Shown: positions 3,107 through 26,331 of the stretch, one piece after another
Layout of the letters: the number at the start of each line of letters is the position of its first letter
How positions within the stretch are numbered: the first letter of the stretch is position 1
Source of the DNA: a virus
Taxonomy: Duplodnaviria > Caudoviricetes
Reading direction: 5' to 3' (one strand)
Length of the DNA stretch: 28,448 nucleotides
IMG/VR virus record: IMGVR_UViG_3300038317_000064
Coordinates: 1-28,448 of that record
Program-made: the position numbers and the translations under genes
The notes under the pieces: generated by a model
The model's input: only the letters and a program-made list of their open reading frames with translations
What the model was told of the DNA's origin: nothing
Databases searched by the model: none

Positions 3107-4386
3107 ACGTTATAGTCGCTTAGTGGTACTAAACCCTGCTGAATGAATATCTCGTTTGCATATGGTTCTTCGCTCTCGTCAGATCCCTGCATTACTCTTA
3201 CCTCGTTGATCGAATGTGTTTTTAGAAACGCTTCTACCTGCGTGTCTGAAATCCTTAGTTCTTCATAAGAGGAAAGGTCGTAGTCGATTATATATGTTTT
3301 GTTGTCTCTATTCGAAAAAGGTTCTACCAGCCATTTGTTCAGCTTGTCCTCCTCCAATGAAAGGTAAGGCAGCACAACATCCATAACAAGTCTCAATCTT
3401 CCCTCTCTTGCGTTCTGGTAGGTAGGATTAGGATCGAACAAGACCGCAGGAACGTTCCACAGGTCGCACAATTTAACCCCTGCGTGCTCTAATCCCTTTA
3501 CGATGTTTAGTGCGTCTGGTGACAGCCCTATGTGAGTGTATTGAAGTGGCATTCCAGAAACGACAATCTTGTTCTTGTTGTCCGCTCCGTGTATCTTCGT
3601 TTCTACCGTTGTTTGTGTGCTCTCTACCTGATCAGGTGTCAACCATAAATTTGGATCTGCATGGTTTGGTGAAATTAGTCCCTTTGCCCCCTCGTTCTCT
3701 ACAGACTTAATCCAGCTTTGAATTGCGGAATCGTCAAGCTGAAGATATTTAAGCCCGGCTAAAAGAGGGCTCATTCCCCTTAGTTGTGTTCCCGAAGCGT
3801 CGAATACGGGGTTTGGCATCTTCAAATGAAAAACATCACCTGCCGGGATCTCCCTCGTAAGTCCGTTAAACAGATTGAGCTTCCACGCTACCAGCCCCTC
3901 CGAGCTCACCACTTGTGTCATTAAATGAGCAGGAACTACGTGCAAACTTAACGCACAATCGTCATCCCCTGCCTCCCTGTAAATGAATGTTTCGCCCTGA
4001 ACGAAATAAAATATCCTCGCAAGAGTGATGAACTCCCTCCATGTCTGTAACGTGTTCGGGTTTTTGAGTAGTTTTACAAGATCGTTATCCTCCGGGGCGT
4101 ACTTTAATTCCTTATGCACGTAAAGCCTATGTTTGGCTACCGATATGTCGCTGTCCTTTCTCGATTTTGACTTAACTCCTTTTGAATCGATATAAACGTA
4201 TGGTGTTGATGCCGCACACTTGTCCGTAATCTTCTTGATGATTGAATATATCTCCCCGTTAGACGTGTACCCCTTTGAAATGTAGTCCTCGGCGTTGTAG
4301 TTGTACAATACAACAGGTGAATTGCCTATAAATGTGGAGTACAGGAACGACTTCGATACTTTATTTTTTCTTCTGAATAATCTCAT
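3103..4386 (-). CDS. Phage portal protein (HK97 family)
   Basis: 427 aa; LLKNPN..QT..EF, G..FIY, DVFHLK, RGMSPL and SINEVR motifs; follows TerL. Confidence 0.93.
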   Translation of the reverse strand: MRLFRRKNKVSKSFLYSTFIGNSPVVLYNYNAEDYISKGYTSNGEIYSIIKKITDKCAASTPYVYIDSKGVKSKSRKDSDISVAKHRLYVHKELKYAPEDNDLVKLLKNPNTLQTWREFITLARIFYFVQGETFIYREAGDDDCALSLHVVPAHLMTQVVSSEGLVAWKLNLFNGLTREIPAGDVFHLKMPNPVFDASGTQLRGMSPLLAGLKYLQLDDSAIQSWIKSVENEGAKGLISPNHADPNLWLTPDQVESTQTTVETKIHGADNKNKIVVSGMPLQYTHIGLSPDALNIVKGLEHAGVKLCDLWNVPAVLFDPNPTYQNAREGRLRLVMDVVLPYLSLEEDKLNKWLVEPFSNRDNKTYIIDYDLSSYEELRISDTQVEAFLKTHSINEVRVMQGSDESEEPYANEIFIQQGLVPLSDYNV

Positions 4387-6050
4387 CTTATTGCAAATGA
4401 AAATTTGTGTTTCGGATTTAATGAATAGCGCAAAGCATCTATACCGTGATTATACATGTCGATAGGCTTGTTCGTCGGGTTGCCGTCCTTATCCAAGGCC
4501 CAACTGTACGACCTTAGCTCTTTTATCAGGTTGGTGCTTCTCTGTGTTACGTAAATAGGTCTGCTCTGAAGTCTGTCAATACCCGTCCTGACGCTGTCAG
4601 CACCCTTTACGGCGGGTTTTATGTTAAATCCAGCATTGTGTATCTCCTGAATACTTTTAGGCTCTGCGCTGTCTGCAATGATCTCGTCGTAGCTTTTCCT
4701 TATTCCTAATGATTCAAGTCTATTGATGATATGAGAGTTTAGCATACCTGTTTGATATATTAGCTCGTCTACGTAGTACGCTTCATCTGTTTCGATTGTC
4801 GCTACTAAAGAGGTGGGGTCGCAATTATGAACTAAAATCCCGTTAGCAAAGTATTCATGAGCATCTTCAATTTCTAAATCGTAAACGTCGCAATAAAAAC
4901 TACGAACGTTTTTTACGTTTATTAATCCCTGATAATTTATGTGCGTGTTCATTTGAACAGCATTTTGGCTTAAGGTATTTATTCCCTTGAAAAACCTCTC
5001 CACAATACTGGCTAAAATAATAGTTTGCATGCTTTCCTGATGGGTATCGGTTGTACTTTTCTCCTTTAAACTCGATTGTACACACAATACGTCCCTCTCT
5101 GTTAATTCTCCGTACTTCTTCCATTTTCCGTTAGCATAAAAATGATGTTCATGTGTTGCACAAATATTTGTGCTCAAAGCATCTGTTATTAATTTTTTCT
5201 CAATTACTTTTTTATATCCGTTATAGATGGTTCTTTTTACGAGCCTATATCCTTTACGTGTTAAAACTAAATCACCCTTTTTTACGTCTTTGATTTGAAT
5301 TAATCCTTTAGATGTAGTAATCAATGTTTCTCCACTAAAACAGCTAAACCCGAAATCTAACCCGTATATCTTATCACCTTCAGGCATCCTATCCACCTGC
5401 ATCCAGTTTGAAAAAATGATCCCCTCGGTTACGCCGTATTCGCAGTCAATGTGAATCCGCCTGAAGTTTTCGTCCCTGGATGCTCTTTTGGCGATCCTGT
5501 TTTTTTCGGTCTCAGGAAGAAAGGGATTATCTAAGTAGTTAGATTTAATGGTTAAAACTTTATCGTAGTTTGCTGCCCAGTCCTCAACCCAGAATTGAGC
5601 GGTCGGGTTGAAGTCGGCTATCACGTTTTCCGTCCGTCTCGCAAGCTCATCCCAAACATCTTTTTTCAATGAGTTGATCTCGTTTCCGTATAACCAGTCT
5701 CTACGTGCTCCAAGTGCCTTGTCGATACGGTCAGCGGAAAAGAACTCGATTATCGTTCCGGTTGGTGAAGTCCATGTCGATTTTGATATGTTCCAGTTCT
5801 CTTTCCCCCAAAGATTTAAAGGTTTGCATATTCCGGAAAGTATTCTTATAGCTCCTATTTCCAGGTGCGGCCTACTCTCCGAAACAACGGTAATGATCAG
5901 ATCGGGATGGGTTACCGCTACTGAAAAAAGATATAACATGTTGTCATATGTCTTTCCCGATCCCGTTCCTCCACGGTGGATGCAAATCTTAAAACCGTCG
6001 TCAAAGGCCTGACGGGTCTTATTGTATATCGTCCCCGTCTTTATTTCCAT
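4383..6050 (-). CDS. terL: Terminase large subunit (PBSX-like) interrupted by an intein
   Basis: Walker A GGTGSGKT, NE, DFNP, NYLDNPFL, nuclease GLDFG, ADSAEPKSI, NHGIDALRY. Predicted 382 aa after removing the 173-aa intein. Confidence 0.95.
   Translation of the reverse strand: MEIKTGTIYNKTRQAFDDGFKICIHRGGTGSGKTYDNMLYLFSVAVTHPDLIITVVSESRPHLEIGAIRILSGICKPLNLWGKENWNISKSTWTSPTGTIIEFFSADRIDKALGARRDWLYGNEINSLKKDVWDELARRTENVIADFNPTAQFWVEDWAANYDKVLTIKSNYLDNPFLPETEKNRIAKRASRDENFRRIHIDCEYGVTEGIIFSNWMQVDRMPEGDKIYGLDFGFSCFSGETLITTSKGLIQIKDVKKGDLVLTRKGYRLVKRTIYNGYKKVIEKKLITDALSTNICATHEHHFYANGKWKKYGELTERDVLCVQSSLKEKSTTDTHQESMQTIILASIVERFFKGINTLSQNAVQMNTHINYQGLINVKNVRSFYCDVYDLEIEDAHEYFANGILVHNCDPTSLVATIETDEAYYVDELIYQTGMLNSHIINRLESLGIRKSYDEIIADSAEPKSIQEIHNAGFNIKPAVKGADSVRTGIDRLQSRPIYVTQRSTNLIKELRSYSWALDKDGNPTNKPIDMYNHGIDALRYSLNPKHKFSFAIR
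4824..5342 (-). mobile_element. Intein (173 aa, no in-frame homing endonuclease) in the TerL nuclease domain
   Basis: Starts CFSGETLITT (block A), has ATHEH (block B TxxH) and DVYDLEIEDAHEYFANGILVHN (blocks F/G); +1 residue is Cys. Junction GLDFGFS|CDPT. Confidence 0.95.
4900..5124 (-). CDS. Alternate-frame ORF nested in the intein; probable remnant of an out-of-frame homing endonuclease
   Basis: 74 aa, same strand as TerL but a different frame, lying between intein blocks B and F. Contains EFKGEKYNRYP..YY, a degenerate Zn-finger (SQYCGEVF...KCCSNEH) and a basic tail. Confidence 0.55.
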   Translation of the reverse strand: MEEVRRINREGRIVCTIEFKGEKYNRYPSGKHANYYFSQYCGEVFQGNKYLKPKCCSNEHAHKLSGINKRKKRS

Positions 6051-8851: not shown

Positions 8852-8883
8852 TTTTAAACATTCGTAAATGCCACGTTATGTGC
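8852..8883 (+). repeat. attC-like half site / junction repeat, copy 1
   Basis: TTTTAAACATTCGTAAATGCCAC-GTTATGTGC. Near-identical to 11582-11608 and similar to 12501-12526. Core GTTATGTG (8875-8882) is the exact complement of CACATAAC (9201-9208). Confidence 0.7.
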
Positions 8884-8887
8884 CATT

Positions 8888-9172
8888 TTAAAAAGACCCT
8901 GCACTATCTTCAAACCCTCTTTGGAAATAGTTTACAAGCATAAAAATATCTTTTTCCGACACATCTTTAAAGCAGGGGATTACAGGGTAGTCGTGACCAC
9001 TATGTCCAGAATTTACAGAAACATAGCTTTTAATCACCTGAATCCCACACAAAGTATCTTCATCCCATTCCCAATCATTAAACCTTTCCGCAATAATTAG
9101 TAAATAATCTGGGGTATAATTCATTTTTCTCAAACCTGAAGCAACCGCTTCAATAAATTCTCTTTTTGTCAT
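8888..9172 (-). CDS. Hypothetical protein carried in an attC-bounded cassette (start 9172 or 9205)
   Basis: ORF lies between the complementary cores at 8875 and 9201. Confidence 0.7.
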   Translation of the reverse strand: MTKREFIEAVASGLRKMNYTPDYLLIIAERFNDWEWDEDTLCGIQVIKSYVSVNSGHSGHDYPVIPCFKDVSEKDIFMLVNYFQRGFEDSAGSF

Positions 9173-9173
9173 T

Positions 9174-9269
9174 TTAGTTAAAATTTGTGAAGAAAAACGA
9201 CACATAACAGCACCTAACCAAAATTGGCGGTTCAGTGGTTATATGGGCGTTTCTGCTTCGATTATACAT
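9174..9269 (-). CDS. Putative 31-aa leader peptide encoded across the attC-like site
   Basis: MYNRSRNAHITTEPPILVRCCYVSFFFTNFN*; A-rich upstream context; TAA ends 1 nt before ATG 9172. Confidence 0.45.
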   Translation of the reverse strand: MYNRSRNAHITTEPPILVRCCYVSFFFTNFN

Positions 9270-9334
9270 TTTTTTTAAGTTTTAAAGTTTGTCCTTCGTA
9301 ATCGCCAACTTCGGTTAGCTGCAAAACGTTATCC
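9201..9334 (+). mobile_element. Complete attC-like recombination site (about 134 bp)
   Basis: CACATAAC-A-GCACCTAACCAAAATTGGCG...CGCCAACTTCGGTTAGCTGC-AAAAC-GTTATCC: imperfect inverted arms, AAC/GTT cores and a T-rich loop. Confidence 0.75.
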
Positions 9335-9520
9335 GTTCGGGTGAATTTTACAACCATTAGGATACCATTTGTCACTCCCAGTAAATCTTATGCACTTACA
9401 CTCGTCATCCGTCAACTCATCATCAACAAGATTCGATAACAGTTCTTTTGCTTCTGACGGCTCCATTTTTTTATTGTAAAGCAATTCTAAAATTTGGTCT
9501 ATGCTCATTTTATCGCTCAT
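9329..9520 (-). CDS. Hypothetical protein (probable start 9520)
   Basis: C-terminal CKC...C.IH; its TAA stop is the TTA of the attC GTTA core. Confidence 0.6.
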   Translation of the reverse strand: MSDKMSIDQILELLYNKKMEPSEAKELLSNLVDDELTDDECKCIRFTGSDKWYPNGCKIHPNG

Positions 9521-9794
9521 ATCCGTGATTTTTTGGGTTATCGTCATATAACCCGATTTGTTCATCGCCCCGCATCGTGTTGATCAGTGCTTGCTTTTGT
9601 TTGTATTTATCTTTTTTTAGTTCGTTTTTAATAAAAAATCCACAATCCGCCTCGTTAAAATCAGCATAGCTGTATGTATCCCAAGGCAGGCAATCCAGAT
9701 ACCTCTTACATTTCAGTTTCTTCTCGCACCGCTCATTTGCGCAGCGGGATATGTCGTTGGGGAGAAAACTACTTGTTTCTATAGATTGCGCCAT
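9510..9794 (-). CDS. Hypothetical Cys-motif protein
   Basis: DISRC....C.....C.RY motif plus a C-terminal KQALI..M..DE.IGLY segment. Confidence 0.65.
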   Translation of the reverse strand: MAQSIETSSFLPNDISRCANERCEKKLKCKRYLDCLPWDTYSYADFNEADCGFFIKNELKKDKYKQKQALINTMRGDEQIGLYDDNPKNHGYER

Positions 9795-9796
9795 AG

Positions 9797-10978
9797 TCAG
9801 TTTGCTTTAAAATTATAAATAGGTGTTATTATTTCAACAATTTCAACTGTATCGAAAATAGCGCCAATAATTTCATCCATAGATTTATATGCTTGCGGAG
9901 CCTCATCAATAGTAGATTCATTTACCGAAGTTGAGAATACATTGCCCATCGATTCAGAATATTCATCCATTGATATCATTTCTTTTGCCTTTGAACGGCT
10001 CATTAACCGGCCGGCACCGTGCGGAGCGGAATAGTTCCAGTCCTCATTCCCTTTTCCCCTACAAATCAATGATCCATCACGCATATTGATAGGGATAAGC
10101 AATATTTCCCCGGCTTCGGCGCTTACAGCACCCTTCCGAAGGATCATGTTCCGGATATCGATATAATTGTGAATAGTTTCGAACTGATCAGCAACATTCA
10201 ATCCCGTTTCTTTGAGTATGACTTCAGCCATCATTTTACGGTTCAGGGAGGCGAAATTTTGAACGATCTTCATATCGTTGATATAATCCTCAAAATCCTG
10301 CTTTTCGACGAAAGCAAGGTCTTTATTTGCTTTCGGCTTTTGAAGCTTCTTCAATTCTGTATCGATATCTTTTTCCCGGCCTTGCCGCTTCAGGTACTCA
10401 ATGAGTTTGCATTTGATAGTGCTCATCTCATTGACATTTTTCCATGCCAGATCCTGATAATACTTGCAGACATTTACGCCTAAATTCCTGCTCCCGGAGT
10501 GGATGACAAGGTATAAATTCCCGTTATCATCCCGGTCAACTTCTATGAAGTGGTTCCCGCCCCCAAGTGTACCAATCGACAACATTGCACGCTCCAGATC
10601 CGCATGTTTCGCACATCGCAATTCGGAGAAATCAAATTTCGCAATAGATCTATCCCTGATAGAAAATCCGGAAGGGACATGACCCCTGATAATCTGGTCG
10701 AGTTTATGCAAGTCGATATCTTTTTCTTTCAGTTTAGTTGTAAGCATCCCGCAACCGATATCAACTCCGACCAAATTTGGGGTAACCTTATCTGTTATTG
10801 TCATAGTAGTGCCAACCGTACAACCCTTACCCGCATGAGCATCCGGCATAATTCGTATTTTTGAATTCAAATACGGCTCGAAATTTGCCAGCGATTTTAT
10901 TTGATCGTAAGCCTCATATTCAAATGTTTCTGCATAAATCTTTACCTCATTTCCAATGCTGTTCTTAATCTTTTTCAT
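9797..10978 (-). CDS. rtcB: RtcB-family RNA ligase
   Basis: MPDAHAG.G..VG, GVDIGCG, GTLGGGNHF.E, HSGSR, HN, RKGA, SAPHGAGR and DEAP.AYK motifs are all present. Confidence 0.97.
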   Translation of the reverse strand: MKKIKNSIGNEVKIYAETFEYEAYDQIKSLANFEPYLNSKIRIMPDAHAGKGCTVGTTMTITDKVTPNLVGVDIGCGMLTTKLKEKDIDLHKLDQIIRGHVPSGFSIRDRSIAKFDFSELRCAKHADLERAMLSIGTLGGGNHFIEVDRDDNGNLYLVIHSGSRNLGVNVCKYYQDLAWKNVNEMSTIKCKLIEYLKRQGREKDIDTELKKLQKPKANKDLAFVEKQDFEDYINDMKIVQNFASLNRKMMAEVILKETGLNVADQFETIHNYIDIRNMILRKGAVSAEAGEILLIPINMRDGSLICRGKGNEDWNYSAPHGAGRLMSRSKAKEMISMDEYSESMGNVFSTSVNESTIDEAPQAYKSMDEIIGAIFDTVEIVEIITPIYNFKAN

Positions 10979-10992
10979 AACTTCAAAATTGT

Positions 10993-11187
10993 TTACAAAT
11001 GATCTTCTTCGATTTCACTCCATTTCTCCCCATCAGTCGTGTAAACGCCTTTTGCAAGGTCATATACAACCATCCCGACCTCTGCGTTGAAATGATTTTC
11101 TGCGTCAAATCGGTCAGAAAGAAATGGCGGTTGGATGTTTGTTGTTATTAAGTATCTCATAGCTTCAATAGTTTTTCGTATTTCCAT
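10993..11187 (-). CDS. Hypothetical protein
   Basis: 64 aa ORF tiling with neighbours. Confidence 0.65.
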   Translation of the reverse strand: MEIRKTIEAMRYLITTNIQPPFLSDRFDAENHFNAEVGMVVYDLAKGVYTTDGEKWSEIEEDHL

Positions 11188-11202
11188 ATTTTATAAACTG
11201 TT

Positions 11203-11418
11203 TCATTCCAAACACTCTTTTACACGTTTTTCAAAATCACGCTGCGCTGCAGATGGGTACTCTAATGGCATCCAGTGTGTAATTTCATTCCAATCTGCAA
11301 ACCTTTCATCTTCATCTGACCAAACAGTTGAATAAATTTGTTTGCTTTCAATATCTCGGTAAACTAAAACAAGTTGTCCGATTTCAGGTTTTTGTTTGTT
11401 GTATTCAATCCAATCCAT
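11203..11418 (-). CDS. DUF551-like phage protein
   Basis: WI....KPE.GQ.VLV...ITHWMPL. Confidence 0.8.
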   Translation of the reverse strand: MDWIEYNKQKPEIGQLVLVYRDIESKQIYSTVWSDEDERFADWNEITHWMPLEYPSAAQRDFEKRVKECLE

Positions 11419-11426
11419 CGTTCAAA

Positions 11427-11573
11427 TCATTCCTCCAATATTTTCACGCCAGCCTCAACCATTAACCGCAAGTACTCACGAAAAGAATATATGTCGTCAT
11501 ACCCTTTTTTCAGGTAGTGCTCCATCAGTTCGGCTTCGGTGGCTTCAATTATTTTGTTACGTTTTATTTTCAT
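11427..11573 (-). CDS. Hypothetical 48-aa protein (below ORF-track cutoff)
   Basis: MKIKRNKIIEATEAELMEHYLKKGYDDIYSFREYLRLMVEAGVKILEE*. Confidence 0.6.
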   Translation of the reverse strand: MKIKRNKIIEATEAELMEHYLKKGYDDIYSFREYLRLMVEAGVKILEE

Positions 11574-11581
11574 ATCCTTTG

Positions 11582-11611
11582 TTTTAAACATTCGTAAATA
11601 CCGTGTTAACT
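11582..11611 (+). repeat. attC-like half site / junction repeat, copy 2
   Basis: TTTTAAACATTCGTAAATACCGT-GTTAACT; the TTA in the core is the stop of ORF 11606. Confidence 0.65.
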
Positions 11612-11899
11612 GGAGAACCCATCACAATTACCACCTTCGTCATAAACATACCTACTCTGCAATATAATCCTTTCTGCTTCTTCTCTATTATATTGCTCTT
11701 GAATATGCTCCATTTCAATGTCATACCACGTGTTCACTATCTCCAGCATGGCTTCTGCTCCGGCGAGAAAGTCATTATATGATCCAATTTGTTCTTCAGA
11801 CGCATAAGTATCAATATTGACATCTATAGGTATTAATGCATACTCTCTTGCTTTCTGCTCTATTTGTTCTTTTATCGCTTCTGTCGGTTCTATTTTCAT
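11606..11899 (-). CDS. Hypothetical protein (probable start 11899)
   Basis: IEQKAREYA...FLAGAE pattern typical of small phage proteins. Confidence 0.65.
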   Translation of the reverse strand: MKIEPTEAIKEQIEQKAREYALIPIDVNIDTYASEEQIGSYNDFLAGAEAMLEIVNTWYDIEMEHIQEQYNREEAERIILQSRYVYDEGGNCDGFSS

Positions 11900-11900
11900 A

Positions 11901-12269
11901 TCAATACTTTTTGCCGTGCATCCTTTCACGGGTTGCGTTATACTTCATTTTCAACTCGATGTGCTTTTCGATATCGATACCTTTTGCTCCGCATAGGTCG
12001 AGGATTCGGATAATTGTGTCGGCAAGTTCATCCTCGAACGTGTCTTTAATCGAATTTTCAAAAGACCATTTAAAATCAATGAAATTTTCTTTGTCTTTTT
12101 CAATTAATTCCAAGTCGGCATACAACACATTCCTATCAGCTTCCATCGCCTCCGCCAATTCTGATACGCAAAGCATCAATAGTGTTCCGGTCTCTCTTTT
12201 GTTATCCCAAAATCCTTTGTTGATTGCATATTCGTGAATTTCATCACGTAGTTTGTTTAATGTTTTCAT
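11901..12269 (-). CDS. MazG-like NTP pyrophosphohydrolase
   Basis: L...SELAEAMEA.R...EDELAD..IRILD and KM.YN..R...HGKKY. Confidence 0.85.
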   Translation of the reverse strand: MKTLNKLRDEIHEYAINKGFWDNKRETGTLLMLCVSELAEAMEADRNVLYADLELIEKDKENFIDFKWSFENSIKDTFEDELADTIIRILDLCGAKGIDIEKHIELKMKYNATRERMHGKKY

Positions 12270-12278
12270 ACCCTTTGT

Positions 12279-12476
12279 TTAAATAAAATGAAAATGTTCT
12301 GCTTTTTCAATATAACCTATACCACCGTTTGACAATTTCACTGTGTGCCTAACCCCGTAGGGTGTATTTTTTGCATTCCAGCCGGTTGCAATTATTTCAC
12401 CCGTCAACCCCTGATAATTGCCGGAATGAAATTCAACCATGTCTCCAATTTCGATTCGTGATTTGTTTGTTTTCAT
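12279..12476 (-). CDS. Small KOW/SH3-like protein
   Basis: IGDMVEF.SG.Y.G..GEI is KOW-like. Confidence 0.55.
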   Translation of the reverse strand: MKTNKSRIEIGDMVEFHSGNYQGLTGEIIATGWNAKNTPYGVRHTVKLSNGGIGYIEKAEHFHFI

Positions 12477-12500
12477 TTCCTTAGTTTAATTATTATCCAT

Positions 12501-12532
12501 TTCAAGTATTCGCAAACGCCACGTTATAGGTA
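12501..12532 (+). repeat. attC-like half site / junction repeat, copy 3
   Basis: TTCAAGTATTCGCAAACGCCAC-GTTATAGGTA; core 12523-12532 is the exact complement of TACCTATAAC (12799-12808). Confidence 0.7.
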
Positions 12533-12871
12533 AGCATATCGACCGTAATTAGCCGACATTTTAAACTCCCTATCTGTTTGAATTGGGTTTAAGTCCATAT
12601 CAATTTCGTAGCAATGCAAAAAGAACGGAATATCGTTCACAAAATATGTTCGTTGTTTAATATCGGTTCTATCTTCACATCTACAATTTGATTTAATAAA
12701 GTTTTCAAGTTCAATTCTATTCTCAAACTCAAATCCTTTTCTTTTAAGTCCTTCAATCATATAATCTTCTAACTGCTTATTGAGTTGGGAAGAAAGCCTA
12801 CCTATAACACTCGCTGTAAGTAATGGCGGGTCTTGTGGCTCATAATCAAGTTTTCGGCGCTCTATTTTCAT
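12524..12871 (-). CDS. Hypothetical cassette protein whose N-terminus is encoded by an attC arm
   Basis: Stop lies in the GTTA core at 12523; residues DPPLLTASVIGR read through the attC arm at 12799-12830. Confidence 0.7.
   Translation of the reverse strand: MKIERRKLDYEPQDPPLLTASVIGRLSSQLNKQLEDYMIEGLKRKGFEFENRIELENFIKSNCRCEDRTDIKQRTYFVNDIPFFLHCYEIDMDLNPIQTDREFKMSANYGRYAYL
12799..12870 (+). mobile_element. Truncated attC-like site (left arm and loop only)
   Basis: TACCTATAAC-ACTCGCTGTAAGTAATGGCGGG resembles the left arms at 9201 and 13590. No right arm was found. Confidence 0.6.
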
Positions 12872-13104
12872 TTCTTCAGTTTCAAAATTGATTGTTTGTC
12901 AATTTCACCCGTTAAATAATCATTTTTATACTCACAAGCTGCATTTTCTGCCGCATCCTCCAATGCCTGATTATAAGCTTCTTTTTGAGCTTGTTCAATA
13001 TAATTTTTTATACCATTTTTAAACTGAATAAAACTAATTTCATCCCAATCAAACTTACTCCACAATTTCACTACATCATCTGAATATTCTTCTGCTGTTT
13101 TCAT
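12868..13104 (-). CDS. Hypothetical protein (MKTAEE paralog A)
   Basis: 78 aa; shares MKTAEE and IEQAQKExY with the neighbouring gene. Confidence 0.7.
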   Translation of the reverse strand: MKTAEEYSDDVVKLWSKFDWDEISFIQFKNGIKNYIEQAQKEAYNQALEDAAENAACEYKNDYLTGEIDKQSILKLKK

Positions 13105-13120
13105 ATTTTTAGTTTCAGAA

Positions 13121-13381
13121 TTAAAAGGACTTGTGTTCTTCTATCCATTCTTGCGGAGTAACATATTTGTTTGATAGGCAATACTCCATGTAGTACTGCA
13201 TATTTAAAAACATCTCCCTCTTTGCCTCATCGTAAACTTCTTTTTGGGCCTGTTCAATTGCATTAACACAAGCCTCCCACTCTGGAACTTGTTTCATTTC
13301 ATCTATAGTTACATAACTATCCTTTGTCCTTGATAACATAGAAGTTAAATGACTTTCTAATATTTCTTCTGCTGTTTTCAT
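13121..13381 (-). CDS. Hypothetical protein (MKTAEE paralog B)
   Basis: 86 aa; shares MKTAEE and IEQAQKExY with the neighbouring gene. Confidence 0.7.
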   Translation of the reverse strand: MKTAEEILESHLTSMLSRTKDSYVTIDEMKQVPEWEACVNAIEQAQKEVYDEAKREMFLNMQYYMEYCLSNKYVTPQEWIEEHKSF

Positions 13382-13413
13382 TTCTTTGTTTTAATTATTG
13401 CGTATATATTTTG

Positions 13414-13641
13414 TTAGTAGCCATTTTGAAGAACAGCCACAGCCTTACGCAAATCTTCTATCATTGGCTTTAGTGTTTCAATTTCATTATCTGTGTATTG
13501 ATTTGGATTGTGAGCCATCATCAGATTTGCTTCCTTTAATTGTAATTCAAGCGTCAGTAGCCTTGATGTTAGCATTAAAAAAGAAAAACGGCCACCAATA
13601 TCAGGTAGCTGCAATGGCTTGCTGTGTGCTTCATTTAACAT
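13414..13641 (-). CDS. Hypothetical cassette protein starting inside an attC-like loop
   Basis: Stop lies in the GTTA core at 13413; ATG is inside the site 13590-13727; KPLQLPDIGGR is encoded by the attC arm. Confidence 0.65.
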   Translation of the reverse strand: MLNEAHSKPLQLPDIGGRFSFLMLTSRLLTLELQLKEANLMMAHNPNQYTDNEIETLKPMIEDLRKAVAVLQNGY

Positions 13642-13727
13642 GTTATTGGTATTTAAAAAAATTTATAATTCTATTTAAGTTTATCGGTTATGGTCGCCGC
13701 TCGCAGCTACCTGTATCCGTTATAGGT
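13590..13727 (+). mobile_element. Complete attC-like site with a degenerate left core
   Basis: GGCCACCAAT-AT-CAGGTAGCTGC...GCAGCTACCTG-TATCC-GTTATAGGT: an 11-bp perfect inverted repeat. The left core matches the complement of GTTAGTAGCC (13413) at 7/10, and all mismatches are transitions. Confidence 0.7.
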
Positions 13728-13729
13728 AA

Positions 13730-13954
13730 TTAAATTACTACCTTCAGCTCCTTTACCCAGCTTTTGCCTTCGAGATACATCCCCAAATTGAAAAAACGAT
13801 TTTGCTTTTTATCAATGATAATTTCCGTTCCATCATTTGGGGTTACTTTTACAATTTGAGCCTTTACGGGTTCGTTTTTTAATGTGTCACCAGTCACAAT
13901 AAGCGTATCTCCTTGCTTAATGTCGGTAATCGTTTTTACTTCCTTCAATTCCAT
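13730..13954 (-). CDS. Hypothetical protein
   Basis: 74 aa ORF ending just past the attC core. Confidence 0.65.
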   Translation of the reverse strand: MELKEVKTITDIKQGDTLIVTGDTLKNEPVKAQIVKVTPNDGTEIIIDKKQNRFFNLGMYLEGKSWVKELKVVI

Positions 13955-13997
13955 AATTCGTTTTTCATAATAATTTACTGTGTTTATTTGTCATCCG

Positions 13998-14279
13998 TTA
14001 TTCTATCGGTCTCCAGCCGATAACATTGTCAACAGGGGTGTCCCAATAAACAAAATCTCCTTTTTCAACCCAATATGTTACGAGCAGGATTTCATCTTTA
14101 TCCGTTTTTACAAGAACCTGTTCATCTTTCGGTAATTCCTCTTTCGGGTCTCTCCATCGCATGGCCTCTGAGTAGCCATCTATAAAACCTTGAAATGATG
14201 CCGTTTTTGGGTGCATATCAAAACCAAAATCAGCTTCTGTTTTTGCTGCATACATGCCTGCTTTTTCTTCTACTGTCAT
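13998..14279 (-). CDS. DUF551-like protein (probable start 14279)
   Basis: RWRDPKEELP....VLVK...VIGWRPIE. Confidence 0.7.
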   Translation of the reverse strand: MTVEEKAGMYAAKTEADFGFDMHPKTASFQGFIDGYSEAMRWRDPKEELPKDEQVLVKTDKDEILLVTYWVEKGDFVYWDTPVDNVIGWRPIE

Positions 14280-16056: not shown

Positions 16057-16726
16057 ATTCTTTTTTTGCCCAGTTTTGGAATGTAAGGTTTACGGACACA
16101 TACCTTTTTGGTGAATCCTTATAATTTGACATATCAGTTAATATTTTGCGAATTTGCTCCCCGTTGTATTTTTCGGTTAATCTTTTATATTCGTCAAGAG
16201 TTATCTGATCTCTTATTTTTCTCAGGTATGGAATGTTTTTATCTATCCATTCGTTGAATCGGTCGAACTCTTTTTCTTTTTCAGATTTTTCGCTTATATA
16301 TGTATTCTTCTTTTCATTATTATCATTATTATCATTATTGTTTGGGTCGGCTTGCGTTTGCGTTGCGTTCGGCTTGCGTTTGCGTTGCGTTTGCGTTGCG
16401 TGCGGCAAAGTCTGGTAATCATCATAATTTAAGATAGTTATCCGTGTGGTAACCGTGATGTTTTCCGTGCGTAACATTGAGTCATTTTTGAGCAGGTCGA
16501 AAAAACTTCTTACCGTGCTTTTTGATACTCCCCACCGCTTCGACCACCCCTGTAAACTTCTTATACTTTGTCCTCTTTTACACTCAATCAATTGCATCCC
16601 GATATTGACTGTTCCATCGGCATGGTTGGCCTCCAAAATCATATCAATCCACCATCTTAACTTTACAGGGTCTTCCCAAATCCAATGGCTTCTTATTTTT
16701 CGGTGAAGCATTATCCATCCTTCCAT
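16049..16726 (-). CDS. Phage replication initiator (lambda O / replisome-organizer-like)
   Basis: GWI.LHRKI..HWIW, AN, RGQ..S...S.RW, ITILNY..YQ and a low-complexity linker carrying DNA repeats; adjacent to dnaB. Confidence 0.85.
   Translation of the reverse strand: MEGWIMLHRKIRSHWIWEDPVKLRWWIDMILEANHADGTVNIGMQLIECKRGQSIRSLQGWSKRWGVSKSTVRSFFDLLKNDSMLRTENITVTTRITILNYDDYQTLPHATQTQRKRKPNATQTQADPNNNDNNDNNEKKNTYISEKSEKEKEFDRFNEWIDKNIPYLRKIRDQITLDEYKRLTEKYNGEQIRKILTDMSNYKDSPKRYVSVNLTFQNWAKKEYG
16314..16401. repeat. Probable replication origin: iterons plus AT-rich repeats
   Basis: Five 11-bp units ending TTGCGT (16347-16401; the 22-mer TCGGCTTGCGTTTGCGTTGCGT occurs twice), next to TCATTATT(A) x3 (16314-16339). 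Confidence 0.75.
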
Positions 16727-22424: not shown

Positions 22425-23152
22425 ATCTCTCCAAATATTTTTTTATCAGTTATCAATTCTCTGTTGCTCTCTAAAAACTCAATTAATCTTTCGCAATGCT
22501 CAACCAAAAGAGGGATATCCCTTTCTGGAACAAATGAATACTGCTCAATATAAATCTTCTTGAAATCGGTTACCACATATTCAAAATCGCTGATCAGATT
22601 CCCGTTTTCGATGAGACAATATGGGTAAACCTTGTGCTGCCAATTGTCCTTAAACTTAAAAGCGTTGTATTTGCCCGTTGTTTTCAAATCACAGACCTTG
22701 AATGGTAATAGCTCGTCTATGTATCCATAAAGCTCTATCGTGCCGTATTTCGTCTCTAAAGGTGCTGAAACGTGAAGCTGCGGGATTGATTCCTTGAAGT
22801 AGTCTCTGATCTTTAAAGTCAAGTCCAAAGGAAACTCCCAGATATAGGATTTATACGCAGCGGCTATAACGCCTAAATCCTTATGAGTTTTGAACTCCAT
22901 TTCCTTTTCTGGCTTCTTTTTTAAAATCAGACAGTCGATCAGTTCGTTATAACAAGTACCCTTATCGGCCGCCTCGCTTTCAAAGGGCACTCTGTTTATT
23001 CTGTCTATCAAACCTTGAAACTGTTCCTGCTCGAATTCCTCCTCCGTCTTTTTTGGATTTTCAGAACCGCCCCAGTAAAGATTCCAGATTTTAAAGCTGT
23101 CTATGTAACCCTGAAAAGAATCCAACAAAGTAGCGTAAAACCTATACTTCAT
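22421..23152 (-). CDS. PD-(D/E)XK exonuclease
   Basis: A.KGT.....D...LYGYIDEL....VCDLKTT...WQ...Y. Confidence 0.8.
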   Translation of the reverse strand: MKYRFYATLLDSFQGYIDSFKIWNLYWGGSENPKKTEEEFEQEQFQGLIDRINRVPFESEAADKGTCYNELIDCLILKKKPEKEMEFKTHKDLGVIAAAYKSYIWEFPLDLTLKIRDYFKESIPQLHVSAPLETKYGTIELYGYIDELLPFKVCDLKTTGKYNAFKFKDNWQHKVYPYCLIENGNLISDFEYVVTDFKKIYIEQYSFVPERDIPLLVEHCERLIEFLESNRELITDKKIFGEI

Positions 23153-24080
23153 AACCTTTTCCCTTTACCCATTTAAGGTTTAGTTCGTCCGTCTTGGCTT
23201 TTAAAAGTGATCTCGCCATTTCCTTTGAGCTTCCTATGTGGTCGTAATCGTCAATCCTCGCCACAAAATCGTTAGCTAAATCAGCATCGGTAATTGCCGA
23301 AATATCGCTCTTGATTAACTCTACCACCTCCTTATATTTTTCGCCGTCGACTATCCTGTCTTTTAATCTTCTTATGTATGGCTCGATAACCTGAACGGAA
23401 AGAAAATTATTATCTGCAACGGGGTTTCCGTGTTCGTCGGTTATTGTGGGGATATCCATCACGCTTGGAAGATTACAGGTGTTTTTCCCGTCGTTTCTCG
23501 AAGTGGGGTCAAAAGTGATTGTTCTTTTTCTTCCAACGGCTTCCATGTATCCAACCAAATCCAATTCCGTAACCAATGAATCGTAGTTCGATCCACCGAA
23601 TAAAGGCACATATCTCATATCGTCACCGTCCTGTCTTGTTTCCCTGTGAGCGACAAAGACCAGGTGTTTTCCCATTATGGATATTTTTTTGATCAATGCG
23701 GAAAACATTGCCTTTCTTTCCCCGTATCCCTGCAATGTGAGCATCCCGTTAGCCCTGCCCATCTTTGAGTTCTTTTTTGTGATATACTCGCCCATATAGT
23801 CCAGAAGTTTACCACCAGTGTCGATTACAAGTGTTTCGTAAGGCTTTAAATCTTCCTTATCCAGCACGTCGATGAAGTTCTGATAGTTTTCTATCTGGAC
23901 CGTATCCACTCCATTCAAATGAGCGTAGTTAATCCTGTGCACCCCTCCATCGAAGTCAAATAAAAGTGGTTTTGGTGCTGAAATTGCAAGTGTGCTTTTT
24001 CCCGTTCCCGCTTGTCCGTAAATCAACGCTTTAATTTTAGCGTCAATGTTCAATTCGTTCGCTTTCTTTATTAAACTCAT
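23142..24080 (-). CDS. Sak4-like (AAA_24) recombination ATPase
   Basis: LIYGQAGTGKST, FDFDGG, TLVIDT, GYG, FVAH, DLVGYM. Confidence 0.88.
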   Translation of the reverse strand: MSLIKKANELNIDAKIKALIYGQAGTGKSTLAISAPKPLLFDFDGGVHRINYAHLNGVDTVQIENYQNFIDVLDKEDLKPYETLVIDTGGKLLDYMGEYITKKNSKMGRANGMLTLQGYGERKAMFSALIKKISIMGKHLVFVAHRETRQDGDDMRYVPLFGGSNYDSLVTELDLVGYMEAVGRKRTITFDPTSRNDGKNTCNLPSVMDIPTITDEHGNPVADNNFLSVQVIEPYIRRLKDRIVDGEKYKEVVELIKSDISAITDADLANDFVARIDDYDHIGSSKEMARSLLKAKTDELNLKWVKGKGYEV

Positions 24081-25416: not shown

Positions 25417-25493
25417 AATATTGCTATTAATAACATCACTAAACTCCATACAAGGATTACCCGTAAAATGATGGTCATTGCTTTTGTTGTCAT
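25413..25493 (-). CDS. 26-aa hydrophobic micro-protein
   Basis: MTTKAMTIILRVILVWSLVMLLIAIL*; starts within the repeated leader. Confidence 0.55.
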   Translation of the reverse strand: MTTKAMTIILRVILVWSLVMLLIAIL

Positions 25494-25528
25494 AATATTA
25501 AGAACGATTCGCCTGTACATCGTGAGGT
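25483..25528 (-). repeat. 46-bp leader repeat, copy A
   Basis: 44/46 identical to 26094-26139. Confidence 0.9.
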
Positions 25529-25548
25529 ATTAAAAAATTAAACAATTA

Positions 25549-25845
25549 TCATATGCTGTTAATAAATTCCATCACCTCTGAAATTGTCAACGTTCTATAT
25601 TGCAGTCTTTCAATAGCCCTTGCGCAAACAAACTGCCTGGTTGAATATCTGCAATCAGTCATTACATCAAGGTTTCCGTCAGAACAGCAAATTGTCATTA
25701 TGTTGTCTACATAGTCACAATCTTTTGTTGTTTTGCGCAAATATATAGCCTCGCGATACCATTCCTCGTAAACATATCGAGGCACATGTTTTCCAATTTT
25801 TTCAAATATTACCGTCATCAATGAGTTTAATTTCCCGTTATTCAT
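25549..25845 (-). CDS. Hypothetical early protein
   Basis: 98 aa ORF tiling with neighbours. Confidence 0.6.
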   Translation of the reverse strand: MNNGKLNSLMTVIFEKIGKHVPRYVYEEWYREAIYLRKTTKDCDYVDNIMTICCSDGNLDVMTDCRYSTRQFVCARAIERLQYRTLTISEVMEFINSI

Positions 25846-26093: not shown

Positions 26094-26139
26094 TTTGTTG
26101 TCATAATATTAAGAACGATTAGCCTATACATCGTGAGGT
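26094..26139 (-). repeat. 46-bp leader repeat, copy B
   Basis: 44/46 identical to 25483-25528; leads into the 8-aa ORF MTTKKTTL* (26078-26104). Confidence 0.9.
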
Positions 26140-26148
26140 TTTTAAAAT

Positions 26149-26331
26149 TTAAATTAATATTAAATCAATATATGAAGTCTGCCCCCATGAGTTGCTATGT
26201 ACCCACGCTACCTTGTATCTCACGTTATCCTCGTCGTACAAGTACCTATGATCATCGTCAAAGGTATAGCCATGATCTTTCAAGATTTCATCTACCGTTT
26301 TCTGTGTCAAAACTTCAATTCTTGTCTTCAT
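26149..26331 (-). CDS. Hypothetical protein, first gene after the early promoter
   Basis: 60 aa; A-rich start context. Confidence 0.6.
   Translation of the reverse strand: MKTRIEVLTQKTVDEILKDHGYTFDDDHRYLYDEDNVRYKVAWVHSNSWGQTSYIDLILI

Follow-up and report, generated by a model that had tools for sequence, protein, structure and literature searches.

Among the closest described relatives of the system reported here are integrons, including those of IntI1 and the Vibrio chromosomal integrons, whose attC sites have AAC...GTT cores, form imperfect hairpins with one better-folding strand, recombine at a G|TT junction, and delimit cassettes with complementary ends. These features recur in a tailed-phage contig of 28,448 nt (Duplodnaviria; Caudoviricetes; the complete IMG/VR record IMGVR_UViG_3300038317_000064, positions 1 to 28,448, analysed at full length and called the window below), in a variable region between 8860 and 14000 that contains three candidate cassettes. 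They recur also in bacterial arrays of the same hairpin type, where the first cassette lies, as in integrons, at a fixed site beside a tyrosine recombinase. The system differs from integrons in that the sites have no extrahelical base and 4 extra nt on the GTT arm, the recombinase is co-oriented and is without the ~35-residue domain of IntI (PMC4889954), and the phage genes lie antisense to the top strand, with probable starts in the loop for many of them. We consider it probable that the region is a row of mobile cassettes with integron-like hairpins, whose genes are reversed relative to the bacterial family, and that it is shuffled by a host tyrosine recombinase without the integron-integrase insertion.

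Other known systems share parts of this arrangement. In Bacteroidales, the arrays known as rAID-1 (recombinase-associated acquired interbacterial defence; 10.1101/471110) combine a XerD-like recombinase at the 5' end with short co-directional genes and repeated intergenic sequences 'reminiscent of integrons'. rAID-1 is further defined by >44% identity to the recombinase BF9343_RS08045 and by a cargo with a GC content of 41% or lower that includes orphan immunity genes. In the bacterial loci analysed here, which are the part of the system that this comparison concerns, the layout is the same, i.e., a 5' XerD-like recombinase, co-directional downstream genes, and repeated intergenic elements. 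The host side resembles rAID-1 in its layout. In the portions of 10.1101/471110 and PMC12247911 considered here, rAID-1 is described as gut-bacterial orphan-immunity arrays, with no hairpin geometry, crossover or phage copies, and in the main text of the latter the words 'phage' and 'attC' are absent. Cassette-like sites in phages without an integrase have been described as clusters of attC sites lacking an integrase (CALINs; PMC9892861). As far as the considered portion of that report extends, however, only 'divergent directions' in P12002L are noted, the sites are treated as IntI substrates, and inversion, loop starts, and N-terminal exchange are undescribed. In our analysis, the layout seen here is also that of Polaribacter phage P12002L: its hairpins are AAC-first on the plus strand and stand between genes of the minus strand, with an ATG inside two of the loops. 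Finally, CTXphi and other elements that use host XerCD (PMC4792948) have in common with the present system a host recombinase without I2 and a folded site without extrahelical bases; CTXphi, however, integrates its genome, whereas here single accessory genes are exchanged inside a phage genome.

We interpret the window region as mobile cassettes because relatives break from the window exactly at G|TT. Each cassette begins at G|TT and includes the G of the GTT that follows; the end of the gene lies in or close to the first TTA, and on the coding strand the hairpin precedes the gene. For example, relative L038 matches the window at 99% identity up to and including site 1, the first hairpin, and diverges past G|TT 9328; L105 aligns at 97.3% exactly over 8875-9209, the L034 alignment spans 13413-13598, those of L027-L029 begin at 12521-12522, and the L107/L108 junction is at 12526/13413. 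The bases past each left GTT are the reverse complement of those before the cassette's own AAC core (8875 and site 1, 12523 and site 2, 13413 and site 3). Over the 8 nt after GTT, the match to the own AAC-side end averaged 6.18 across 45 pairs of adjacent bacterial sites, where the previous cassette gave 2.98; across 34 phage pairs, the two values were 5.26 and 3.74. Cassette 3 has ~10 GTT-side neighbours versus ~4 AAC-side hairpin families (14 loci with flanks, counted by eye), and cassette 2 in L121-L124 keeps one hairpin next to 4 different neighbours; L109, L119, and L135 had no usable anchor and were left out of this comparison. No clean core-to-core excision joint of a cassette was detected in contigs from 6 DNA runs, which is not evidence of absence because contigs drop rare forms. 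In six RNA-like runs, only 5-11% of words were present.

The intact hairpin of the window is site 1 (9206..9330), 125 nt from AAC to GTT with 4 extra nt on the GTT arm. Its minus strand folds (z -3.14, 0/200 shuffles), compared to z -0.71 for the plus strand. Site 1 has RYYYAAC...GTTRRRY cores and an imperfect hairpin, the core of site 3 is mutated, and site 2 is a half site. Of the TAACA...CGTTA ends that the initial annotation had ascribed to the sites, both are found only in site 1; site 3 has CAAT, and site 2 is without a right arm. Cassette 1 (8876..9328 on the plus strand), delimited by the L105 and L038 alignments, consists of an inverted gene, a tail, and the hairpin, and its first bases are the reverse complement of those preceding its own AAC core at 9 of 11 positions. 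The gene (8888..9172, minus strand, 94 aa) has its own start at 9172 and no Pfam or PHROG family match. As initially annotated, a leader ORF (open reading frame) of 31 codons (9174..9269, minus strand) runs from the loop ATG at 9269 into the left arm, and its TAA (9176-9174) ends 1 nt before ATG 9172. A pattern search for site 1 yielded 21 viral loci and 5 genome loci, and blastn against 50,697 phage records yielded zero matches. The leader adjoins the next gene in 16 of 19 phage copies of this hairpin family; in the bacterial copies, TAA directly follows the loop ATG (3/3). A candidate reading of site 1 as a gene-free mini-cassette with its GTT at 9177 was ruled out, this GTT not being conserved in other copies. 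The GTTA at 9328 provides the stop of the adjoining gene (9329..9565, minus strand), which run X2, with a loose end before 9326, joins to a different right arm. At the cassette's other end, a 10-codon ORF (8886-8854, minus strand) begins 1 nt past the stop of gene 8888 and crosses the core at 8875; such ATGs are equally frequent in bacterial arrays, and this ORF may be incidental.

The cassette genes are reversed between the phage and bacterial sites. In bacteria, the cassette gene is on the AAC-first strand (69 of 76 sites with a gene call; the other 2 of the 78 sites have none), whereas in phages, it is on the opposite strand (54 of 56 sites, counted after the symmetric phage site L028 was dropped). 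The detector used for these counts is orientation-neutral and found 0 sites in 168,448 nt of shuffled phage DNA, and the phage loci were picked via site 1 and cassette homologues, not gene direction. Among the site-1 family loci shown, viral genes are opposite to the AAC-first strand and those of L022, L025, and L026 are on the same strand; L023 and L024, 2-kb contigs with phage-type cassettes, are presumably phage DNA in bins. The base directly after AAC (A/G) is opposite a G at 69 of 70 sites in bacteria and at 44 of 44 in phages; the pair at stem position 15 is not Watson-Crick at any site, and on the minus strand it is a G.T pair throughout, in bacteria and phages alike. Two invariant G.T pairs form only on the phage coding strand. 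The G.T pairs are biased toward one strand (148:58 in bacteria, 131:47 in phages), and the bottom-like strand folds better; a G.T excess is known to mark the bottom strand of attC (PMC5027507). Because bacterial gene orientation, junction position, and G.T pairs agree, we denote the plus strand as 'top', and the phage coding strand would be the bottom-like folding strand. The inversion that had been proposed for the window cassettes is upheld by the strand counts, and the G.T pairs place the minus strand as bottom-like.

The sites also have a geometry of their own. The 4 extra nt on the GTT arm are present in 70 of 78 sites in the ungapped search and in 57 of 91 in a gapped bacterial search, and the AAC arm of most sites is without any extrahelical base, at most 1 extra nt being seen there in 12 of the 91 gapped bacterial sites. 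The classical extrahelical-base test is inapplicable because the sites are without such a base. Judged by geometry and associated recombinase, both of which differ from those of canonical integrons, the sites are not canonical attC; 'attC' is too strong a label for sites with no extrahelical base and a recombinase without the IntI insertion.

The bacterial arrays are preceded by a tyrosine recombinase of 350-390 aa, ~40 residues short compared to true IntI; array-linked recombinases score 191 and 214, with the TIGR02249 cut-off at 265. Matches to the array recombinase with E 1e-60 or better were found in 101 of 201 genomes of the class searched. We analysed 42 recombinase loci, namely 40 of those matches (selected on score and on the flank available) and 2 loci of G001, with G116 left out. 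There are 78 hairpins in 266,798 nt downstream of the recombinase and 1 in 390,115 nt upstream, and all 78 face one way. Among 20 loci whose first hairpin is near, 13 have the first cassette 87-127 nt behind the recombinase, after a TATA..AA|GTT motif, a fixed position that suggests an attI-like arrangement; the TATA..AA motif is absent at the window's array. In many contigs, the recombinase gene is no more than a few hundred bases away from the contig end on its downstream side, which would be expected if hairpin repeats break assemblies, and the arrays are probably undercounted. The Chryseobacterium plasmids H16 and H17 carry full-length relatives of the array recombinase with about 52% identity. 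On the phage side, no full-length match to the array-type recombinase was found in cultured phages (best 35% over 69%), and no integrase ORF was found among the scanned proteins of the window, which is a partial genome. We infer that the recombinase acts in trans because a PF00589 recombinase is present in just 1 of 22 phage records (1 of the 8 near-complete ones). With a detector other than the IntegronFinder model, the window, a partial contig, yields 1 hairpin site at threshold.

We then considered starts of translation. The minus-strand ATGs at 9269, 12871, and 13641, noted initially, are present at 61, 63, and 42 nt from the left core, respectively, and the N-termini DPPLLTASVIGR and KPLQLPDIGGR are indeed read through the left arm. 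Among 37 phage sites that were unselected and outside the site-1 family, a loop ATG leads into or adjoins a gene in 25, compared to 7 of 78 bacterial sites (p 2e-10), and in 20 of the 37, about half, the loop ORF is the gene's own N-terminus. In this respect, the sites differ from ORF-11 of attI1 and the short ORFs of attC (PMC8876359), which are alike in that a short ORF in the recombination site ends beside the start of the next gene: here, the ORF lies on the other strand, with its ATG in the loop, and in these 20 sites encodes the N-terminus itself. Adenines at -3, -6, -12, and -13 favour initiation in Flavobacterium (PMC6847099), and at least 3 of these 4 key adenines precede the loop ATG in 18 of 31 phage sites, compared to 10 of 50 bacterial ones. 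The four published positions were used because a start-context matrix from 36 window genes was noisy (ATG 9172 at the 38th percentile). In the window, ATG 9269, ATG 9172, and ATG 13641 each have 4/4.

Close homologues of genes 12524 and 13414 have another residue in place of the first internal Met but keep the residues that precede it. Because these earlier residues are conserved and the first internal Met is not, the starts of cassettes 2 and 3 are placed upstream of the core, and loop starts for both genes appear well supported by these comparisons. Cassette 1 differs. Its leader does not seem to be needed, because L105 has the same module, 97% identical, behind a hairpin without a loop ATG, and because ATG 9172 has its own 4/4 adenines; it is conserved in its hairpin family yet dispensable, a helper at most. 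The suggested role of the loop as a start module therefore fits the first two genes and does not extend to gene 8888-9172. Val is the residue that the core GTT encodes in 13 of the 20 fusions, which explains the shared V-x-G/S N-terminal motif. We also considered whether the frame of the GTT-side arm is locked for read-through, and rejected it: an in-frame ATG is present <=45 nt away at 24 of 56 phage sites and at 31 of 78 bacterial ones, with no phage-specific signal.

A further proposal was that recombination swaps N-termini. The 65 cassette-3 proteins form 9 arm groups (short alignment, single-linkage groups), three of which occur on both well-supported body clades (21/10, 11/4, and 1/1). 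P0011 and P0012 have bodies 93-95% identical to window cassette 3 and unrelated N-termini. In the DNA, the switch of the N-terminus sits at the AAC core, where near-identical genes carry different hairpins. The comparisons support N-terminal swapping as an outcome that appears rarer than movement of whole cassettes. Because the G|TT crossover keeps the start with the gene, a swap needs a second junction at the AAC core; the proposal thus stands as to the outcome, and not as to the usual exchange. Recombination at the AAC-side core by the attC top strand is known, at low frequency (PMC5027507). In L055 (sites ~8538 and ~8877, reversed), L056, L058, and L059, there are several phage cassettes, from different records, in which different genes have one N-terminus in common or members of one methylase family have different N-termini.

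Three copies of an arm-less motif lie at 8860..8878 (with G|TT at 8875; this copy forms the variable region's left end), 11590..11608 (a variant belonging to repeat family D4, in which TTA is the stop of gene 11606-11899), and 12508..12526 (G|TT at 12523), all on the plus strand. None of the three has a partner arm, nor has any of the 16 viral matches (best 9-11/16 nt), and the 16 matches have 15 different sequences after GTT. For example, the copy at 12523 is followed by cassette 2 in the window, by cassette 3 in L107/L108, and by other sequence in run X4, and in L147, L150, and L156, a common left gene is followed by three different first cassettes. The motif appears to act like an attI site, i.e., as a docking site, although it could instead be a fixed remnant of a right arm. 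P12002L likewise carries an arm-less sequence of which a copy stands at the left end of each of two arrays. In NC_028924 (L158), the attC2 site of PMC9892861 recurs at 29176-29246 and 37200-37270, at the left end of two arrays. This site faces the other way, has no clear partner arm, and seems to be a docking (attI-like) site and not an attC.

The GTTA cores also serve as gene ends. As initially reported, TTA of GTTA is the stop of genes 9329, 11606, 12524, and 13414, and a fifth case, gene 13998-14279, had been overlooked; its GTTA (13997..14000, plus strand) marks the right end of the variable region. The GTTA at 11605, 12523, and 13413 provide stops and are not the ends of complete hairpins. 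TAAC stops occur in 5 of 16 genes at 8888-14279 versus 1 of 38 elsewhere (Fisher p 0.007 for all genes; restricted to TAA-ending genes, p just 0.06).

The remaining two sites are damaged in the window. The cassette 2 gene (12524..12871, minus strand, 115 aa) ends in a core TTA and takes its first ~22 residues from the loop and the left arm. Its half site (12806..12871, plus strand) retains the AAC core, the left arm, and half of the loop, the upstream gene replacing the right arm at the ATG; without this arm, there is no fold (z -0.26). Therefore, of the three ATGs that had been placed in loops, those of sites 1 and 3 are confirmed there, whereas ATG 12871 is outside any loop in the window, where its ATGA overlaps the stop of gene 12868-13104. 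Site 2 is a complete hairpin with the same ATG in its loop in L027-L029, which align to the window as far as 12873. Some cassette-2 relatives (L030, L031, P0183-P0185) are without the arm-derived N-terminus. A three-gene segment (12523..13412, plus strand) is flanked by a G|TT core on either side. The motif before 12523 leads straight into cassette 3 in L107 and L108, but the genes to its left differ there too, so this is a junction match and not a clean single indel. The cassette 3 gene (13414..13641, minus strand, 75 aa) also ends in a core TTA and starts in the loop of site 3, and its relatives carry other hairpin-derived N-termini. In site 3 (13597..13721), CAAT replaces TAAC, the left core being mutated to AAT where homologues have AAC; an 11-bp stem is visible, and the whole-site fold is non-significant (z -1.45, 17/200). 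Site 3 is probably immobile now because its core is mutated. The window is a partly decayed example, for which relatives give unusually clean junction evidence.

The window encodes a major head protein, terminase, DnaB helicase, and endolysin by protein scan, and nearly all its long ORFs are on the minus strand. The host would be a member of Bacteroidota, because Bacteroidota genomes contain the site-1 hairpin family, a cassette-2 homologue is named from a Bacteroidales bin, and the loop starts are without Shine-Dalgarno-like words (0 of 45 productive starts); another cassette-2 homologue is named from a Tissierellia bin. The best cultured relative of the DnaB is only about 31% identical.

These observations fit the following mechanism. 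The folded strand would be the phage coding strand, with the main crossover at GTT. Promoterless cassettes must face the phage's one-way transcription, and the reversal would let them be read in the operon; if replication is co-directional, the folding strand would lie on the lagging-strand template, a position that favours attC recombination (PMC5371416). The A-rich loop ATG would be used by many cassettes, so that translation of the left arm yields the first 15-25 residues, and an exchange on the AAC side would swap the start site together with the N-terminus. The enzyme would act in trans from a rAID-like host platform comprising the recombinase, an attI-like site, and a co-oriented array. 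In a more far-reaching form, which we advance only tentatively, Bacteroidota phages may keep a mirror-image cassette pool of their own and hijack a host I2-less rAID-type recombinase that cuts both cores of a hairpin free of extrahelical bases, cuts at GTT moving whole genes to arm-less docking sites and cuts at AAC swapping start and N-terminus.

Several points weigh against this interpretation. Only one of the three window sites is intact, ATG 12871 has 0/4 key adenines in the window, and the cassette 1 leader is dispensable in L105. Of the unselected phage sites, 12 of 37 have no productive loop ATG, and part of the contrast with bacteria in loop ATGs follows from gene strand alone. The link between recombinase and hairpins is co-location only, the host and the replication direction are deductions, and, the window being a partial genome, the phage may have a recombinase of its own. 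Numerous junctions among close relatives are at gene starts and not at cores, as in ordinary phage mosaicism, and the AAC-side swaps occur at the end of a tail that is common to unrelated cassettes, where homologous recombination could produce them. These last points, together with the damage to two of three window sites, are what would be expected if the hairpins were relics, i.e., if the cassettes had entered once site-specifically and were now reshuffled by a phage annealing protein via short shared sequences, the loop ATG being co-opted later. The shared tail before the AAC core is 25-30 nt long, and the window encodes an AAA_24 protein (23142..24080, minus strand; PF13479, E 1.8e-45), which we take to be a Sak4-like annealing protein and which might provide a possible second exchange route. 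We nevertheless regard relics as unlikely: only ~4 nt are shared at G|TT between different neighbours, yet breaks recur there, and, in 44 phage sites as well as in bacteria, stem pairing remains close to 100% at most positions.

Ordinary attC sites handled by a canonical integron integrase, with genes incidentally inverted, would account for the AAC/GTT cores, the imperfect hairpin, and the G.T strand bias, all of which match attC (PMC5027507). Moreover, IntI1 recombined five of six phage sites (PMC9892861), and bin G003, which has the hairpin family, also has a true IntI, on another contig. This explanation is quite improbable given the absence of the AAC-arm extrahelical base, the 4 extra nt on the GTT arm in most gapped sites, and arrays that follow a recombinase without the IntI insertion. 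In addition, P12002L_attC1, the sole site not verified as IntI1-recombined in PMC9892861, has the present geometry with 3 extra nt; this fits a different enzyme but is a single negative. We give still less credence to an ordinary orientation, in which the phage unit is a gene plus the hairpin past its stop, crossover is on the AAC side, and the loop ATG belongs to the gene that lands next: although, on the coding strand, TAAC and a hairpin come after each gene, and AAC-side exchanges are seen in L105 and L034, the preceding hairpin stays with its gene far more often than the following one (cassette 3 and L121-L124, above), and the strand-specific G.T pairs are the same as in bacteria. Last, hairpins acting mainly as RNA elements (terminators, processing, translational coupling), with a secondary likeness to recombination sites, would agree with the better-folding strand being the phage mRNA strand and with the reported aid of short ORFs in attC to coupling (PMC8876359). 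This is highly implausible, as bacteria show the same strand bias on the non-coding strand and the DNA junctions are at cores.

Other features of the window may be recorded here. An RtcB RNA ligase gene (9797-10978, minus strand) lies within the variable region and is missing from the corresponding part of the close relative L038. In the terminase large subunit (4383-6050, minus strand), an insert at ~residues 235-410 splits the PHROG terminase matches and matches stretches of helicases and a ribonucleotide reductase, a pattern that we assume to be that of an intein. A 225-aa gene upstream of DnaB contains 11-nt tandem repeats (16352-16406), possibly origin iterons, and a 72-nt direct repeat (86%; 25483-25554 and 26094-26165) precedes two small genes and is possibly a common early promoter or start region.

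Mosaicism of phage genomes is usually ascribed to homologous or illegitimate recombination, and no paper on inverted phage cassettes or loop starts came up in open full-text searches on integrons, phages, and rAID. The present system offers a site-specific mechanism for phage mosaicism, and it would explain the recurrent N-terminal motifs of unrelated small phage proteins as translated hairpin arms. The same layout in the cultured phage P12002L makes the idea directly testable. The origin of new cassettes has been stated to be unknown (PMC4889954), and that of the I2 domain and extrahelical bases has been called a chicken-egg paradox (PMC4792948); a cassette system without I2 and without extrahelical bases would be a missing intermediate. 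If the mirror-image pool and the hijacked rAID-type enzyme are real, the system would stand, as a living intermediate, between Xer recombination and integrons, and would give phage genes a route to become cassettes.

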